A program made the translations under genes and the position numbers. Positions 6,656 to 54,510 of a stretch of 64,000 bases of DNA are shown piece by piece. Each line of letters starts with the position of its first letter. Positions within the stretch are counted from its first letter, which is position 1. Source of the DNA: an uncultured Lachnospiraceae bacterium (GTDB taxonomy: Bacteria; Bacillota; Clostridia; Lachnospirales; Lachnospiraceae); NCBI GenBank assembly GCA_946612455.1, contig CAMOER010000008.1:24934-88933 (forward strand), read 5' to 3'. The notes under the pieces are model-generated. The model did no database searches. It was not told where the DNA came from and saw only the letters and a program-made list of their open reading frames with translations.

Positions 6656-9304
6656 ATGATGACACCGATGATGCAGCATTATCTGGATACGAAAAAAGAG
6701 TATCCGGACTGCATTTTATTCTACAGGCTCGGCGATTTTTATGAAATGTTCTACGAGGACGCCATCACGGTCTCCCGGGAACTTGAACTGACGCTGACGG
6801 GCAAGGACTGCGGCATGCCGGAACGTGCGCCCATGTGCGGCGTGCCGCATCATGCAGCCGACGTCTATATCAGCAAGCTCGTGGAACGGGGATTTAAAGT
6901 CGCCATTGCAGAGCAGACGGAGGATCCGAAGCAGGCAAAGGGACTGGTACGCCGGGAAGTCGTCCGGATCGTGACGCCCGGGACGAACATGGCCCCGCAG
7001 GCGCTGGAAGAAGGCAGAAACAATTACATCATGTGCATTGCTGCGCAGGACCGGGAATTCGGACTTTCCGCAGCAGATGTTTCTACGGGCGAATTTTTTG
7101 CGACGGAAGTGACCTCTGTCGGAGAACTGTTCGATGAGATCTATAAATTCATGCCGTCCGAGATCATCGTAAATGAAGCCTTTATGATCCGCGGCGTGGA
7201 TACAGATGAACTGAAGAACCGCTATCATATGATGATCTCCGTGCTGCCGGCTTCGTATTTTAAGGAAACGGACTGCGTGAAACGGCTCTGTGATCATTTC
7301 GATGTCTATTCCTATGAAAGCCTGGGCTTTAAGGACCGCCACGCGGCAGGTCTTGCTTCCGGCGCTATGCTCATTTATCTGGATGAGACACAGAAGATCG
7401 CGCTCACGCATATTACCGGGGTCAGCCTGTATGACCGTGGGAAATATATGATCATCGATACGTCCACCAGAAGAAATCTGGAACTGACCGAGACGCTGCG
7501 GGAGAAGAAGAAGCACGGGACGCTTCTGTGGGTCCTGGACCGGACGAAGACCGCCATGGGCGCCAGACTCCTGCGTACCATTATCGAACAGCCGCTCCTC
7601 ACAAAGGAGGAGATCATCCGTCGGCAGGATGCGATTCAGGATCTTCTGGACGATCTGATCACCAGAGAGGAGCTGCGGGAATATCTGGCTCCTGTCTATG
7701 ACCTGGAGCGTCTGATGGGAAGGATCACCTTCCATACGGCCGGTCCCAGAGATCTGATCGCTTTTAAGACATCCCTGGAAATGCTGCCGCATATCAGAGG
7801 ACTGCTGCAGGGCTTTGAGAGTGCCCTGCTTACAGAGCTTCATGAGGATATGGATGATCTCACAGATATCTGCGCAATGATCGGCGCAGCGATCAATGAT
7901 GATCCGCCGCTGTCCTCGAAGGAAGGCGGCATTATCAAGGCCGGATATTCCGAAGAAGCCGACCGGCTCCGGGAGGCAAAAACAGAGGGTAACGGCTGGC
8001 TGAAAGAGCTCGAAGAAACAGAAAAAGAGCGCACAGGCATCAAGAACCTGCGTATCAAATACAACAGAGTATTCGGCTATTATCTGGAGGTCACCAACTC
8101 CTTTAAGGATCTGGTACCGGAGGATTATATCCGGAAGCAGACGCTGACGAATGCCGAACGGTACACGACGCCGCGGCTGAAAGAACTTGAGAACGTCATT
8201 CTGGGCGCCGATGAAAAACTGACCGCGTTGGAATATGACATTTTCTGTGAGATCCGGGAGCATATTTCGGGACAAGTCGCACGTGTTCAGAAGACAGCCC
8301 ATGCGGTTGCCATGCTGGATGTGCTGCTGTCGCTGGCGCATGCCGCAGAGCATGAGCATTTCGTGCGGCCGAAGATCAACGACAAAGGAAGCATCAATAT
8401 CATCGGCGGACGTCATCCGGTGGTTGCCAAAATGATGAAGGATGAGCCGTTCGTACCGAACGATACGAAGCTGGATCTGAAGGAGCACAGGATCGCCGTC
8501 ATCACCGGACCGAACATGGCCGGTAAGTCCACGTACATGCGGCAGACAGCGCTGATCGTGCTGATGGCGCAGACCGGATCCTTTGTCCCGGCCGATAAGG
8601 CGGACATCGGGATCAGCGACCGGATCTTCACTCGCGTCGGCGCATCGGACGATCTCGCTTCCGGGCAGAGCACCTTCATGGTGGAAATGACGGAAGTGGC
8701 CAACATCCTGCGGAATGCTACCAGGAATTCCCTTCTGATCCTGGACGAGATCGGCAGGGGCACGAGCACATTTGACGGCCTGGCGATCGCGTGGGCGGTC
8801 GTGGAGCATATCAGTCAGCCGAAGCTGATCGGCGCGAAAACGCTTTTTGCGACGCATTATCATGAACTGACGGAGCTGGAAGGTCATCTTCCCGGCGTGA
8901 ACAACTACTGCATTGCCGTCAAGGAGCAGGGAGATACGATCGTTTTCCTGCGTAAGATCGTTGCCGGCGGCGCGGACAAGAGCTACGGTATCCAGGTCGC
9001 AAAGCTGGCCGGCGTTCCCGGACAGGTGATCGAGAGAGCGAAGGAACTCGTCGCGGAACTGTCCGATGCGGATATCTCGGCACGTGCTAGAGAAGTCGCA
9101 GAGTCGGGGGTCACCGACAGGAAAAAACACGTTCCGAAACCGGATTACGTCGACAGGAACCAGCTTTCGCTGTTCGATACGAACAGTGACGACGAGATCC
9201 TGAAGGAGATCGACAGCCTGGAGCTTTCCACGATGACACCGATCGATGCACTGAATACACTGTATTCGCTGCAGGCTAAAAGAAAGAACCGCTGGCAGGG
9301 ATAA
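6656..9304 (+). CDS. mutS: DNA mismatch repair protein MutS
   Basis: N-terminal TPMMQHYL..FYRLGDFYE mismatch-binding motif. Walker A GPNMAGKST. DEIGRGTST motif. Confidence 0.95.
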   Translation: MMTPMMQHYLDTKKEYPDCILFYRLGDFYEMFYEDAITVSRELELTLTGKDCGMPERAPMCGVPHHAADVYISKLVERGFKVAIAEQTEDPKQAKGLVRREVVRIVTPGTNMAPQALEEGRNNYIMCIAAQDREFGLSAADVSTGEFFATEVTSVGELFDEIYKFMPSEIIVNEAFMIRGVDTDELKNRYHMMISVLPASYFKETDCVKRLCDHFDVYSYESLGFKDRHAAGLASGAMLIYLDETQKIALTHITGVSLYDRGKYMIIDTSTRRNLELTETLREKKKHGTLLWVLDRTKTAMGARLLRTIIEQPLLTKEEIIRRQDAIQDLLDDLITREELREYLAPVYDLERLMGRITFHTAGPRDLIAFKTSLEMLPHIRGLLQGFESALLTELHEDMDDLTDICAMIGAAINDDPPLSSKEGGIIKAGYSEEADRLREAKTEGNGWLKELEETEKERTGIKNLRIKYNRVFGYYLEVTNSFKDLVPEDYIRKQTLTNAERYTTPRLKELENVILGADEKLTALEYDIFCEIREHISGQVARVQKTAHAVAMLDVLLSLAHAAEHEHFVRPKINDKGSINIIGGRHPVVAKMMKDEPFVPNDTKLDLKEHRIAVITGPNMAGKSTYMRQTALIVLMAQTGSFVPADKADIGISDRIFTRVGASDDLASGQSTFMVEMTEVANILRNATRNSLLILDEIGRGTSTFDGLAIAWAVVEHISQPKLIGAKTLFATHYHELTELEGHLPGVNNYCIAVKEQGDTIVFLRKIVAGGADKSYGIQVAKLAGVPGQVIERAKELVAELSDADISARAREVAESGVTDRKKHVPKPDYVDRNQLSLFDTNSDDEILKEIDSLELSTMTPIDALNTLYSLQAKRKNRWQG

Positions 9305-24919: not shown

Positions 24920-24927
24920 ACGAAAAT

Positions 24928-24941
24928 CGAAAATATGTTCG
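24928..24941. promoter_or_regulatory. LexA (Cheo) box 1 upstream of the LysM gene
   Basis: CGAAAATATGTTCG has 1 mismatch to the Firmicute consensus CGAAC-N4-GTTCG. Confidence 0.7.
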
Positions 24942-24950
24942 AAAATGCGG

Positions 24951-24979
24951 TTGACAAACGTATGTTCGGGTGCTATATT
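24951..24979 (+). promoter_or_regulatory. sigma-A promoter of the LysM (YneA-like) gene
   Basis: TTGACA, 17 nt, TATATT, with a TGc extended -10. Confidence 0.65.
24955..24968. promoter_or_regulatory. LexA (Cheo) box 2, between -35 and -10
   Basis: CAAACGTATGTTCG has 1 mismatch to CGAAC-N4-GTTCG and overlaps the promoter spacer. Confidence 0.65.
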
Positions 24980-24994
24980 GTAATCACAGCACAC

Positions 24995-25008
24995 AGAACA
25001 AATGTTCG
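24995..25008. promoter_or_regulatory. LexA (Cheo) box 3, in the 5' leader
   Basis: AGAACAAATGTTCG has 1 mismatch and lies just upstream of the GGAGG RBS. Confidence 0.65.
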
Positions 25009-25017
25009 GAGGAGAAT

Positions 25018-25317
25018 ATGAACAGAAAAGCATTTCGAATGATTTCCGTTTTCATACTGCTGGCCGTGATCCTGATCGCCAGCTTCGGCGCACGTACAAT
25101 GGCTACTTCCAGAAAAGATACACTGCCGCGGGCCTATTCATCTGTGCAGATCCTGCCGGGAGACACGCTCTGGTCCATTTCCGAGACGTACTGCGGGAGC
25201 AGTGATCCGCAGGATATCCGGGAATATGTCCGTGATCTGAAGGAGATGAACCATATCCTGAATGATACATCGCTCCGTGCAGGCGCCTATCTTATGATCT
25301 ATACAGTCAAAAGATAA
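25018..25317 (+). CDS. LysM-domain membrane protein, YneA-like candidate SOS cell-division inhibitor
   Basis: 99 aa. N-terminal TM (ISVFILLAVILIASF) followed by a LysM-like segment (VQILPGDTLWSISETY...LRAGAYLMIY). Preceded by three Cheo boxes, the same architecture as B. subtilis YneA. Confidence 0.6.
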   Translation: MNRKAFRMISVFILLAVILIASFGARTMATSRKDTLPRAYSSVQILPGDTLWSISETYCGSSDPQDIREYVRDLKEMNHILNDTSLRAGAYLMIYTVKR

Positions 25318-25358
25318 GCCGGTGATAGAAGAGCAGTACACTAATATACGCTTACAGC

Positions 25359-25433: not shown

Positions 25434-26489
25434 TCAGTCCTTCTTTTCTCTGAGCTGGACTTTATTCCTGGCACTGCGGCGTCGTTCGTCATCAAGCGCT
25501 GCATAGTGCTTCCGCGTGGTATTGACATCCGAGTGCCCGAGCACATCCGCGACCAGATAGATGTCGCCGGTTTCACGGTACAGATTCGTACCGTAGGTGC
25601 TGCGAAGCTTATGCGGAGTAATATTCTTTAATGTCGTGACGGTCCTGGCATATTTTCTGACCAGATTCTCCACGCTGCGGACGCTCATCCTTTTGCGCTG
25701 CAGAGAAAGGAAAAATGCATCTTCATGTCCTTTTACGGGTATGATATGCTTCCGTTCATTCTCATAGACACGAAGCGCTTCCTCGACTTCATCGCCGAAA
25801 TAAACGATGACTTCCTTGCCGCCTTTCCGGTGAATATGGATGCCGCCGTTCTTGAAATCGACATCATCCAGATTGAGCCCGATACATTCCGAAACTCGGA
25901 TGCCGGTACCGAGCATGAGCGTCATCAGGGCCAGGTCCCGGATCTTTGTTTTTTCATGAAAAGCCTGCTGTTTTTCCGTCAGTTTTTCACCGGATTCGAC
26001 CTGGTCCAGAAGATCGGCGACTTCATCGATATCCAGACGGACGATTTCCTTTTCGTGCAGTTTCGGTAGCGAGATCAGGGCGGTCGGGTTGGTAAAGATC
26101 ATTTCCTTTTTAAAGAAATAATTATAGAAAGTCTTTAAGGAAGACAATTTCCGCATGATGCCGCGTTCCTGGTTGATCCTTTCCGTATCCTCATTGGAAT
26201 AATAACGAAGATGATCCATGTATTTTTCAAGATCAAGGGCTTTGATCTTATCCAGATCGGAAACGACGTACGAAGTGATTTCACGATCGGTAAAATCCGG
26301 ATGCGACTGATGCAGGTAATCAAAGAAGACATGCAGATCGTAGGCGTAGGCGATTTTCGTGCGGGAGGAAGTCGTCTGGTCGATGCCGCGCATGAAAGTC
26401 GCGACGAAGTCCGGCAGGCCGGCAATCAGCTCGCGGAGTTTGATGGTGTTGGCTTTATCAAGCTGTTCGTGGTATGAACGGGAAGGCAT
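25434..26489 (-). CDS. tyrosine site-specific recombinase, XerC/XerD-like
   Basis: 351 aa. SAM-like N-domain. Catalytic-domain motifs LGTGIRVSE (Arg), HKLRST (His-x-x-Arg), LGHSDVNTTRKHY (His ... Tyr). Confidence 0.85.
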   Translation of the reverse strand: MPSRSYHEQLDKANTIKLRELIAGLPDFVATFMRGIDQTTSSRTKIAYAYDLHVFFDYLHQSHPDFTDREITSYVVSDLDKIKALDLEKYMDHLRYYSNEDTERINQERGIMRKLSSLKTFYNYFFKKEMIFTNPTALISLPKLHEKEIVRLDIDEVADLLDQVESGEKLTEKQQAFHEKTKIRDLALMTLMLGTGIRVSECIGLNLDDVDFKNGGIHIHRKGGKEVIVYFGDEVEEALRVYENERKHIIPVKGHEDAFFLSLQRKRMSVRSVENLVRKYARTVTTLKNITPHKLRSTYGTNLYRETGDIYLVADVLGHSDVNTTRKHYAALDDERRRSARNKVQLREKKD

Positions 26490-26529: not shown

Positions 26530-26560
26530 TTATGTAGGATAATTAAATAATCTTACATAA
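26530..26560. promoter_or_regulatory. AT-rich palindrome just upstream of the recombinase start codon (operator-like)
   Basis: TTATGTAGGAT-AATTAAATA-ATCTTACATAA. The 11-nt arms match at 10/11. It lies 41-71 nt upstream of the recombinase ATG. Confidence 0.35.
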
Positions 26561-26585
26561 TCTGATGGAATGAATCCGGCGACAA

Positions 26586-26757
26586 CCGCTGCAGACAGTC
26601 ACCGGCTGAAACTGTGTGTGAAGAGCGACAGGATCGGGCGAAACCGCCGACTGGAAGCCAACACGCTTTATTCGTTGGCTGGAAGGAGTGCGTATGTTTC
26701 GTCCCGGATCCGAAGCAATCTGAGGACCCTGTTTCAGGCGGTGACTGTCTGCAGCGG
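26586..26757. repeat. 27-bp near-perfect inverted repeat pair flanking a 118-bp core (inverton-like, or the closing stem of a structured RNA)
   Basis: IRL 26586-26612 is CCGCTGCAGACAGTCACCGGCTGAAAC. IRR 26731-26757 is GTTTCAGGCGGTGACTGTCTGCAGCGG. They are complementary at 26/27. Outer complementary 8-mers TGAATCCG (26571) and CGGATTCA (26778) extend the pairing. Confidence 0.85.
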
Positions 26758-26933
26758 CGTCACTCGAATGCATAATTCGGATTCAGTAAAACCTAAGACT
26801 TTCAGCGGTGGATTCTTCAGGCTGCAGGCAGCCTTCAGAATGACAATTGATATCAAACGCTGATCACAGTTAAAATGTAATGAATCCGTTGAGGCGAACA
26901 GGTAAAACATGTAAGCCTTGAATAAAAATAATT

Positions 26934-27040
26934 GCACCCAAACTTTACGAATCAGTTGCGGGCGGACTCGAAAAGCAAGTCAATCAACCGAAGTATTATC
27001 AGCACCCAAACTTTAACGAATCAGTTGCGGGCGGACTCGA
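26934..27040 (+). repeat. two direct repeats (38 and 39 nt) separated by a 30-nt unique spacer
   Basis: GCACCCAAACTTT(A)ACGAATCAGTTGCGGGCGGACTCGA occurs at 26934-26971 and 27002-27040, identical except for a 1-nt indel. The spacer is AAAGCAAGTCAATCAACCGAAGTATTATCA. Confidence 0.85.
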
Positions 27041-27071
27041 CAAGTAATACTTCATTAAATCATTGATTTTT

Positions 27072-27123
27072 CGCCCCCAACTATTCGTTAAAGTTTTCTT
27101 TTGCGAATAGTTGGGTTTATTTG
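27072..27123 (+). terminator. inverted partial copy of the repeat forming a 12-bp (extendable to about 18-bp) hairpin plus T-tract
   Basis: CGCCCCCAACTATTCGTTAAAGTTT resembles the reverse complement of the repeat core. CCCAACTATTCG (27076-27087) pairs with CGAATAGTTGGG (27104-27115) and is followed by TTTATTT. Confidence 0.55.
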
Positions 27124-27124
27124 G

Positions 27125-27153
27125 ATCGTACCACTCCATCGGATAAATGTCAA
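27125..27153 (-). promoter_or_regulatory. candidate sigma-A promoter firing toward the repeat locus and recombinase
   Basis: The minus strand reads TTGACA, 17 nt, TACGAT. It would give a leader of about 630 nt ahead of the recombinase ATG. Confidence 0.4.
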
Positions 27154-27245: not shown

Positions 27246-27914
27246 TCAGCTGCTTCCCTTCGGAATATACGGAATGATCGCACCAGCCACGCTGCTGATC
27301 GGCATTGTCTGCAGCAGCACCTTGCCGGGACCGGTCAGTACGGTATTAAACAGACCTTCGCCGCCGAACAATTTATTCTTCAGTCCCGGAACAGTTTGAA
27401 TATCCATGCTGACACTTTCTTCAAAGCCGGCCACATTTCCCGTGTCCACGATCAGGCTTTCCCCGGACCGCAGATCATATTCCACACATTCGCCGTCAAT
27501 CTCGACAAAAGCGATTCCGTGTCCGGAAAGCTTCTGCATGATAAAGCCTTCACCGCCGAACAGCCCGACCGTTCCTTTCTTGCGGAAATGGACGCTCAGT
27601 TTGACGGATGACTCGGATGCCAGAAATGCGGATTTCTGGAAGATCCAGCTGCCGGAGGACACATCGATCGGAAGGATCTTCCCGGGAAAGCTGGATCCGA
27701 ATGCGATCATGCCGGAACCGCCTTTCGCGGTATAGATATTCTGGAAAATACTCTCTCCGGAGAACATTCTGCCGAATCCTCCCGTACCGGATGTCTGCAT
27801 TTCCATATTCGGAGACATCCAGACCATCGAGCCTTTCTCAGTGATCATCGCTTCATTCGGCTGCAGGCTGCATTCCACGACAGGGAAAGATCCGCCTATG
27901 ATCTCATATTGCAT
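27246..27914 (-). CDS. TIGR00266 / AIM24 (DUF124) family protein
   Basis: 222 aa with the MQYEIIGGSFPVVECSL..GEAMITEKGSMVWM N-terminus and a beta-rich body typical of the AIM24 family. Confidence 0.8.
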   Translation of the reverse strand: MQYEIIGGSFPVVECSLQPNEAMITEKGSMVWMSPNMEMQTSGTGGFGRMFSGESIFQNIYTAKGGSGMIAFGSSFPGKILPIDVSSGSWIFQKSAFLASESSVKLSVHFRKKGTVGLFGGEGFIMQKLSGHGIAFVEIDGECVEYDLRSGESLIVDTGNVAGFEESVSMDIQTVPGLKNKLFGGEGLFNTVLTGPGKVLLQTMPISSVAGAIIPYIPKGSS

Positions 27915-36501: not shown

Positions 36502-36527
36502 TGTATGATCTCCTTTGTTTTAAGATA

Positions 36528-36683
36528 AGACGTCGGAAGAGCCTCTGTTACAGTGTTGATTCTGCTTTTTGCTCTCTTCCTGTCGGCCCGTCCGCTGCAG
36601 AATTTTGCAGTTCTGACCGTGGCAGCATCCGCCGAATCTTTCGATGACTGCCATACCTCGTCAACCTTGCGGTCCCGGCGCTA
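36528..36683 (-). ncRNA. glmS ribozyme: glmS ribozyme (GlcN6P-activated self-cleaving riboswitch)
   Basis: The minus strand reads A/GCGCCGGGACCGCAAGGUUGACGAGGUAUGGCAGUCAUCGAAAGAUUCGGCGGAUGCUGCCACGG...GGCUCUUCC. It matches the conserved blocks of the B. subtilis ribozyme as I recall them (AGCGCC, GUUGACGAGG, AUCGAA, UUCGGCGGAUGC, 3' UCUUCC). The predicted cleavage site is 5' of the G at 36681. Confidence 0.88.
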
Positions 36684-36764
36684 ACCTGTTTCCTGTTTAC
36701 CTCCGTGAAGAAACGGGTTTTACATATATAGAGTCCGTATGTAATAACACAGACCTAGCTAATA

Positions 36765-54150: not shown

Positions 54151-54220
54151 GATACAGTCTCCTTCCACGAAAGAATCAGAGTTGCTTACAGAAAAAGCAC
54201 GCAAATGCGTGCTTCGTAAG

Positions 54221-54294
54221 TGGGACCGATGGGGCTCGAACCCATGACCTCTCGCGTGTGAGGCGAACGCTCATCCCAGCTGAGCTACGATCCC
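54221..54294 (-). tRNA. tRNA-Val (anticodon CAC)
   Basis: Hand-folded cloverleaf: acceptor GGGATCG/CGGTCCC, D arm GCTC..GAGC, anticodon stem TTCGC/GCGAG with loop CTCACAC, T arm ATGGG-TTCGAGC-CCCAT. CCA is not encoded. Confidence 0.9.
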
Positions 54295-54394
54295 GAAAGA
54301 ATTACCTACGCTAGTATAGCACGATTCCGCAAAAAATCAAGTGCGGATCGGACGATATTTGCGAAGGAATATAGAAACGGAAAGAATCCGGAAA

Positions 54395-54482
54395 CGGAGA
54401 GTGTGGGATTCGAACCCACGTGCCGGGAAACCGACAACCGCATTTCGAGTGCGGCTCGTTATGACCACTTCGATAACTCTCC
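54395..54482 (-). tRNA. tRNA-Ser (anticodon CGA), class II with a long variable arm
   Basis: Acceptor GGAGAGT/ACTCTCC, anticodon stem CCGCA/TGCGG with loop CTCGAAA, long variable arm, T arm GTGGG-TTCGAAT-CCCAC, discriminator G. Confidence 0.9.
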
Positions 54483-54510
54483 ATACTGTCACAAAGTGAC
54501 GCCGGCACAC

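Follow-up and report, generated by a model that had tools for sequence, protein, structure and literature searches.

The closest described relatives of the locus reported here are single-recombinase Xer systems and the resolution site of a transposon. In the XerS/difSL system of streptococci and lactococci (PMC1914069, PMC2965235, PMC5357621), a single recombinase of ~350 a.a. (XerS, 356 a.a.) is encoded next to a terminus site that lies immediately upstream of its gene, spans 31 bp with an 11-bp centre, and has a documented extra nucleotide in one arm (PMC5357621). The XerH/difH system of epsilon-proteobacteria and the XerL/dif system of Legionellales (PMC9765430), the latter recognised via a mobile element carrying a mimic of the site, are likewise single-recombinase systems that were missed by homology searches, with partly palindromic, AT-rich sites of ~30 bp at a GC-skew inflection and with varying flanking genes. 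Accessory tandem half-sites beside a tyrosine-recombinase core are known from the internal resolution site of the Tn4430 TnpI recombinase (PMC2847244), where two 14-bp inverted core motifs are accompanied on one side by exactly two tandem motif copies (DR1 and DR2) at fixed spacing, which are dispensable accessory elements in transposon cointegrate resolution. The large published survey of dif sites (PMC3025954) was limited to genomes with XerCD orthologues, and searching its supplementary files for Eubacterium, Roseburia, Butyrivibrio, and phytofermentans gave no result. Our literature searches returned XerS, XerH, XerA, and XerL, nothing on Lachnospiraceae, no published dif prediction for this family, and no description of the system presented below.

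The window (the whole 64-kb stretch of DNA that was analysed, from a Lachnospiraceae metagenome-assembled genome) carries the features of interest in a 756-bp gap flanked by two minus-strand genes. One is the recombinase gene described below, the other an AIM24-family gene (nt. 27246–27914, minus strand) with its own terminator, and the surrounding genes are housekeeping, including a yneA-like LysM gene and lexA. The original prediction placed a terminator-like hairpin in this gap, and the hairpin is indeed present (nt. 27076–27093 pairing with nt. 27098–27115 at 16 of 18 positions, followed by the T-rich tail GGGTTTATTT). Within its limits (nt. 27076–27115), however, we noted a 34-bp quasi-palindrome, AACTATTCGTTAAA-GTTTTC-TTTTGCGAATAGTT (nt. 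27079–27112), comprising a left arm (nt. 27079–27092), a central region (nt. 27093–27098), and a right arm (nt. 27099–27112). This layout of two inverted 14-bp arms with 6 bp between them is that of a tyrosine-recombinase core site, and it falls within the dimensions of dif modules (~28–34 bp with two inverted arms and a 6–11-bp centre); we refer to it hereafter as the putative dif-like core. A canonical dif was absent from the 64-kb window, with the best matches to the 28-bp Bacillus or E. coli consensus showing 9–11 mismatches. The core resembles difSL in having arms with TTCG/GAA and A/T runs and in the existence of one half-site variant with an extra nucleotide inside the arm, but differs from it in the 14-6-14 layout and in showing only loose sequence similarity to ATCTTTCCGAAAAACTGTAATTTTCTTGACA.

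The same site recurs widely. Scanning the exact half-site pattern over 185,579 species genomes (one genome per species), we obtained 73 matching stretches, mostly from Lachnospiraceae/Acetatifactor, in unrelated gene contexts and at one locus per genome, the sole exception being a metagenome-assembled genome (MAG) with an inserted element. The window also has a single locus of the site, the half-site AACTTTAACGAAT with two or fewer mismatches occurring only at nt. 27009 (plus strand) and nt. 27083 (minus strand) within the 64 kb. The 14-6-14 layout is common to ~55 Firmicute loci and is also found upstream of orthologous recombinase genes, and the consensus across loci, CCAACTATTCGTTAAA-GTTGTC-TTTTGCG(A/C)ATAGTTGG, is the hairpin itself. 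Sequence variants in the core arms are uncompensated: GCGCATAG is common, and the left arm of locus L008 reads AACTTTTCG against an unaltered right arm, which argues for asymmetric protein-binding arms as opposed to a selected stem.

The location of the site is that of a replication terminus. GC skew in the window is positive to ~24 kb and negative from ~26 kb, with a cumulative peak at 22–26 kb, and long ORFs lie nearly all on the plus strand up to 25.3 kb and nearly all on the minus strand thereafter. Across the motif loci, the nearest genes are typically on the plus strand to the left and on the minus strand to the right, converging on the site. In the 4-kb flanks of 32 Firmicute cores, the left side had the higher skew in 30 cases, and skew changed sign at 24 of the 32 (means +0.10 and −0.10), a test which, over 8 kb, is not independent of convergent transcription and speaks to a terminus-like location only. 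As a positive-to-negative switch is unchanged by reverse complementation, this test is silent on the orientation of the site, and a reading of motif polarity relative to replication from GC skew was rejected for that reason. A larger-scale switch is seen both in the 64-kb window and in the 17-kb L092 locus (within ~3 kb of the site). In L009, the complete Hominifimenecus chromosome, the site is found at ~1.603 of 3.206 Mb (~50%), assuming that the record starts near oriC. The core is therefore found, as dif modules are, at the GC-skew shift point.

The core lies ~590 bp upstream of the gene for a Xer-like tyrosine recombinase of 351 a.a. (nt. 25434–26489, minus strand; Pfam Phage_integrase, 5e-36), which we consider the candidate enzyme. 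The protein is of XerS/XerH size and displays a full catalytic set (R198-K223-H292-R295-H318-Y328) aligned to the catalytic residues of XerD, such that a Xer-family recombinase with the R-K-H-R-H-Y signature is linked to the site. Its best NCBIfam matches were XerS (189 bits), XerC (177), XerA (169), and XerD (162), every one below cutoff; given that the XerS model (NF003462) returned 189.4 bits against a curated cutoff of 267, the recombinase is not a XerS orthologue. The nearest solved structures were XerD, XerA, a XerC-like protein, IntI4, and XerH (1.7e-9), as well as a chain deposited under the RaiA name. The gene is highly conserved, its orthologues at ≥68% identity forming well over a hundred clusters. 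Linkage of gene and site was apparent from both directions: orthologues (42–93% identity) lie inside the 8-kb locus in ~20 loci fetched by the DNA motif alone, and four loci fetched via the recombinase only (L007, L008, L009, and L092; 72–79% identity) all have the site 0.15–1 kb upstream. In Acetatifactor and related genomes, the site is 1–6 kb from the recombinase gene or the gene falls outside the 8-kb locus. The arrangement thus parallels XerS/difSL in the size of its single recombinase, in XerS being the best NCBIfam match, and in a terminus site immediately upstream of the gene, but departs from it in that gene and site are kilobases apart in many genomes. The likeness to XerH/difH and XerL/dif lies in the single-recombinase organisation and in the type and placement of the site, whereas the proteins are only distantly related, the phylum is a different one, and the present case is known from computation.

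A sigma-70-type promoter (TTGACA-17-TG-TACGAT) is predicted at nt. 27125–27153 on the minus strand, reading through the core and the repeats described below towards the recombinase gene. An equivalent promoter abuts the core in L005, L047, L007, L008, L009, L092, and L053. That a strong promoter adjoins the site wherever site and gene are linked, directed at the recombinase operon, suggests autoregulation. Between the repeats and the recombinase gene lies a conserved hairpin (nt. 26812–26841) with a compensatory change in its inner stem among relatives (GGCTGC/GCAGCC versus GCCGC/GCGGC), and, given the minus-strand T-run that follows it in relatives, this hairpin may serve as an attenuator or terminator between site and gene. 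Most of the distant recombinase genes had no operator half-sites upstream, because they sit behind a PP-loop ATPase gene in what looks like an operon. In most relatives (L008, L009, L092, and most Acetatifactor loci, e.g., L013 and L018), the recombinase gene comes directly after this PP-loop ATPase gene (Pfam ATP_bind_3), which often overlaps it in an operon-like manner; the window lineage is without this partner. The gene order recombinase-yneA-lexA recurs in L007, L008, and L092, and in the window three LexA-box-like motifs (CGAAAATATGTTCG, CAAACGTATGTTCG, and AGAACAAATGTTCG; nt. 24927–25010) precede the yneA-like gene, which encodes a 99-a.a. LysM protein (nt. 25019–25318).

Several other features of the window were noted. 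A long imperfect palindrome of ~235 nt (nt. 26560–26795) forms a single hairpin on folding, with z values of −7.5 (minus strand) and −8.9 (plus strand). It is confined to the window lineage, the close relatives L005, L047, and L070 lacking it at the corresponding position. In appearance it is an inserted foldback or MITE-like element, and it had no Rfam match and no exact match in viral contigs. At the edge of this insertion, ~40 bp upstream of the recombinase start codon, is an inverted repeat, TTATGTAGGAT-N9-ATCTTACATAA (nt. 26530–26560), that is missing from L005. A glmS ribozyme and the genes for tRNA-Val(CAC) and tRNA-Ser(CGA) (nt. 36525–36693 and 54220–54483, both on the minus strand) are ordinary features.

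To the left of the core lie the direct repeats on which the original prediction was centred, and its description of them holds: two copies of 38 and ~39 nt (nt. 26934–26971 and nt. 27002–27040, plus strand), differing by one extra A in the second copy, are separated by a unique interval of 30 nt (nt. 26972–27001). The inverted partial copy downstream (nt. 27072–27096) was confirmed as well: over 25 nt it shows 76% complementarity to repeat 1, and with repeat 2 (nt. 27008–27021) all 14 of 14 positions are complementary. The 64-kb window contains exactly two occurrences of a 24-nt repeat core, where shuffles predict none. Each repeat contains AACTTTAACGAAT(Y)AGTTG, which is the reverse complement of the left arm continued by 3–6 bases of the central region, with one extra pyrimidine. 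This half-site occupies nt. 26941–26958 in repeat 1; in repeat 2, it reads AACTTTAACGAATCAGTTG (nt. 27009–27027), corresponding to the inverted left arm, 3–4 central-region bases, and an extra C, and is followed by CGGGCGGACTCGA. An imperfect hairpin proposed within each repeat (GCACCCAAAC/GTTGCGGGC) did not hold up, as the bases that it needs at the 5′ end, GCACCC, are not kept by the closest relatives. The repeats were also considered as a tRNA 3′-end or att remnant, their minus strand reading TTCGAGTCCGCC... in a T-arm-like manner, and this was ruled out by the lack of a matching tRNA in the window, the lack of a T-stem partner, and the lineage-specific nature of the GC-rich part. The idea of a dispersed repeat or MITE was likewise set aside, given one locus per genome and the occurrence of the window-type 24-mer in metagenomes only at this locus.

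Searching relatives for the repeat, as the original prediction had suggested, revealed half-site copies at the same place in close relatives and in other lineages, and the window-type repeat was found in the metagenome collection only at this same locus. Between one and four half-site copies are present in 18 of the 55 loci (about one third of lineages). These copies share one sense and all lie beside the left arm, and among the 55 loci there are almost none beside the right arm or in the opposite orientation. Further arrays are seen in L042, L050, and L061. An extra C or T is present in 22 of 32 half-site copies. In four close relatives, 1.5–3.5 copies are present, the half-site is nearly invariant, and the intervals, including the 30-nt interval of the window, are not kept, being unalignable or irregular (gaps of 8, 33, and 9 nt between copies in the closest relatives). 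Nearly invariant half-sites combined with irregular intervals rule out a CRISPR-like register and suggest selection on the half-site. Spacing is variable throughout, from 28 to ~70 nt between repeat and core and from 39 to 72 nt between copies, and repeats are missing from ~2/3 of lineages; for these two reasons, the repeats are at most dispensable and are not strictly phased. The comparative evidence as a whole supports the DNA-level alternative offered in the original prediction, in which the CGAAT(C)AGTTG units are putative recombinase-binding half-sites.

Tandem copies of a core motif on one side of the core, of which the window has two, are a trait of the TnpI type of resolution site. The Tn4430 TnpI site shares with the present locus both the pair of 14-bp inverted core motifs and the one-sided tandem copies, and the dispensable, accessory nature of its copies offers a candidate likeness for the repeats here, tandem half-site arrays not being described for difSL. 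In contrast to that transposon site, with its fixed spacing and exactly two repeats, we are dealing with a chromosomal terminus site that has zero to four copies at variable spacing and whose proximal copy additionally makes up an extended palindrome together with the core arm. This palindrome of proximal repeat and left arm runs 3–15 bp into lineage-specific sequence. In the window, the outer flank of the left arm (CGCCCCC, nt. 27072–27078) complements the repeat extension GCGGGCG, bringing the palindrome of repeat 2 and left arm to ~25 bp; the corresponding extensions are GCGGGCG/CGCCCGC in L005 and GAGGCG/CGCCTC in L047, and such lineage-specific complementary extensions are seen in relatives and in other genera alike. 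Since an extended palindrome is not required for simple protein binding, it points to a hairpin-related process, and could reflect either selection for a hairpin or template-switch correction of a quasi-palindrome.

Mobile elements also use the site. Gokushovirus prophages sit at dif, and CTX, TLC, and LME-1 are small integrase-less replicons that carry a dif mimic with one good arm and the same centre. The window hairpin matched non-coding DNA of a 5.2-kb microvirus. With the consensus site, 26 phage records were matched, 11 of which were 4.7–6.2-kb Microviridae or Inoviridae from faeces, compared to none of the 10 records matched by a reversed-sequence control. We fetched seven of these genomes (six Microviridae and one Inoviridae; L089 and L093–L098, accessions PQ006333, PQ006515, OQ686930, PQ007022, MG945310, OQ686957, and PQ006112) and found the match in non-coding DNA in all seven, with no annotated integrase in any. 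In most of them, the G(T/C)TGTC centre and the right arm TTTTGCGAATAGTT are largely kept and the left arm is degenerate, a pattern that, by analogy with the replicons above, looks like the attachment sites of Xer-exploiting elements. The faecal Microviridae and the inovirus with the mimic are accordingly candidates for Xer-exploiting phages of Lachnospiraceae, although, compared to the established elements, they are metagenomic genomes for which both host and integration are putative. Insertion exactly at the site, another trait of Xer-exploiting elements, is seen in an Acetatifactor MAG (contig JBJENO010000028.1), in which at least 3.1 kb of DNA encoding a rolling-circle Rep (Rep_OBD) lies between a repeat array with a hybrid, degenerate core (L061) and an intact core (L024). 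The element (L061, nt. 1–2770, plus L024, nt. 7680–8000) has left the hybrid site on the side of the repeat array, and in the related genome L060, array and core are adjacent. A 6.9-kb IMG/VR contig (L086) carries the site together with a CRESS-type Rep (Viral_Rep plus helicase domain). The window repeats, unlike the sites of such elements, are not simple junction sites, since their arm type and orientation are not those expected of scars from either of the two observed attP types.

Taken together, these observations make an undescribed dif-like site for chromosome-dimer resolution in Lachnospiraceae, mimicked by small gut phages, the most likely identity of the site. We consider it probable that the core is a dif-like site at the replication terminus served by the adjacent Xer-like recombinase, and that the repeats are accessory half-sites, in a module of the XerS/XerH style. 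The recombinase would bind the 34-bp core as a pair of monomers, and strand exchange across the 6-bp central region would resolve chromosome dimers, in a single-recombinase, gene-linked arrangement as in XerS/difSL and XerH/difH. The repeats, extra left half-sites that flank the core on a single side, run opposite to the adjacent left arm, and bear an extra pyrimidine, would bind further recombinase subunits as dispensable accessory sites, like DR1 and DR2 of the Tn4430 TnpI site. In the window lineage, they may also act as a roadblock between promoter and recombinase gene; with the promoter firing through core and repeats, we infer that bound recombinase would repress its own transcription. 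The complete version of this account, in which a single undescribed Xer-like recombinase acts on a 34-bp dif, a one-sided array of bulged half-sites recruits further subunits in many lineages, and a family of gut Microviridae and Inoviridae hijack the site, is proposed tentatively, the conjunction of all its parts being rather doubtful.

The main rival concerns the repeats and accepts the core as truly dif-like. Under this reading, which is possible but which we hold to be the lesser prospect, the repeats have no function. They would be either by-products of palindrome instability, in which template switching yields an inverted copy of left arm and flank that is then duplicated in tandem, or footprints left by hairpin-type (CTX-phage-like) integration of single-stranded elements. 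Copy number and spacing do shift between close relatives, repeats are missing from most lineages, and the whole unit, 'spacer' and truncated left arm included, has been duplicated in tandem in L034, L022, and L050. In addition, the proximal repeat and the left-arm flank stay complementary well into lineage-specific sequence on the loop side (14–15 perfect bp in L060/L061), exactly what correction of a quasi-palindrome would produce, and single-stranded DNA phages do use the site. However, a half-site of 19–20 nt with an extra pyrimidine at the same position is kept across genera in which the surroundings have diverged, suggesting purifying selection, and simple junction scars of both element types would differ in arm and orientation. 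Nor does any repeat array have a phage body next to it. A second reading does away with strand exchange altogether and regards the palindrome as only an operator, through which the recombinase or another dimeric regulator represses the promoter of the recombinase operon. In keeping with this, all recombinase-linked lineages that were examined have a strong sigma-70-type promoter next to the site or overlapping it, but in many genomes the site has no promoter and stands by itself where two genes converge, at a distance of kilobases from the recombinase; the site also lies at skew switches, is mimicked by integrase-less phages, and is split into hybrid sites by an integrated element, all of which make an operator-only role improbable.

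Nearly as improbable is an RNA element, i.e., a leader or small RNA with mutually exclusive hairpins (repeat with left arm versus left arm with right arm) working as an attenuator or switch, as the original prediction had entertained. The region would be transcribed from the minus-strand promoter, its fold is more stable than shuffles on both strands (z −3.0 and −4.0), and the extended stem of repeat and left arm varies in a compensatory way between lineages. Against this, the variants in the core arms are uncompensated, the T-tract after the hairpin is not conserved, a terminator scan made no call, and in most genomes the site lies between gene ends without a promoter. The GC-rich stem, conserved U-tract, and compensatory changes of an intrinsic terminator or attenuator are thus not found in combination, and conservation fits the half-site pattern and not a structure. 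Rfam returned nothing at the gathering threshold and only chance-level microRNA-precursor and sRNA models at the E-value threshold. The leading suggestion of the original prediction, a degenerate CRISPR mini-array with a tracr-like anti-repeat, drew on the near-identical repeat pair, the unique 30-nt interval, and the inverted partial copy downstream, and we now regard it as extremely improbable. Regular repeats with uniform, unique spacers are not seen, there being two copies in the window and irregular gaps and duplicated 'spacers' in relatives. The spacers match neither phages nor plasmids: phage matches to the repeat/spacer region came only through the core hairpin, and plasmid matches were at chance level (E about 0.7) with none in the spacers. 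Furthermore, the repeat is limited to one locus and derives from the arm of a recombination site, and none of the ten neighbouring ORFs scanned is cas-like.

The preferred reading, a dif-like core with accessory half-sites, would have several consequences for this family. If the array does act in this way, it would be a topological filter and autoregulatory device at a chromosomal dif, much like a transposon resolution site. To our knowledge, the half-site arrays would have no precedent as accessory recombinase-binding repeats at a chromosomal dif, and control of directionality would become testable in a Xer system. If the core is the dif of these bacteria, it would also allow the replication terminus to be recognised by sequence in fragmented metagenome-assembled genomes, and its mimics would tie uncultured gut microviruses and inoviruses to a host and offer them a way to integrate. 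Above all, a dimer-resolution site and its enzyme would be defined for a dominant family of gut bacteria.
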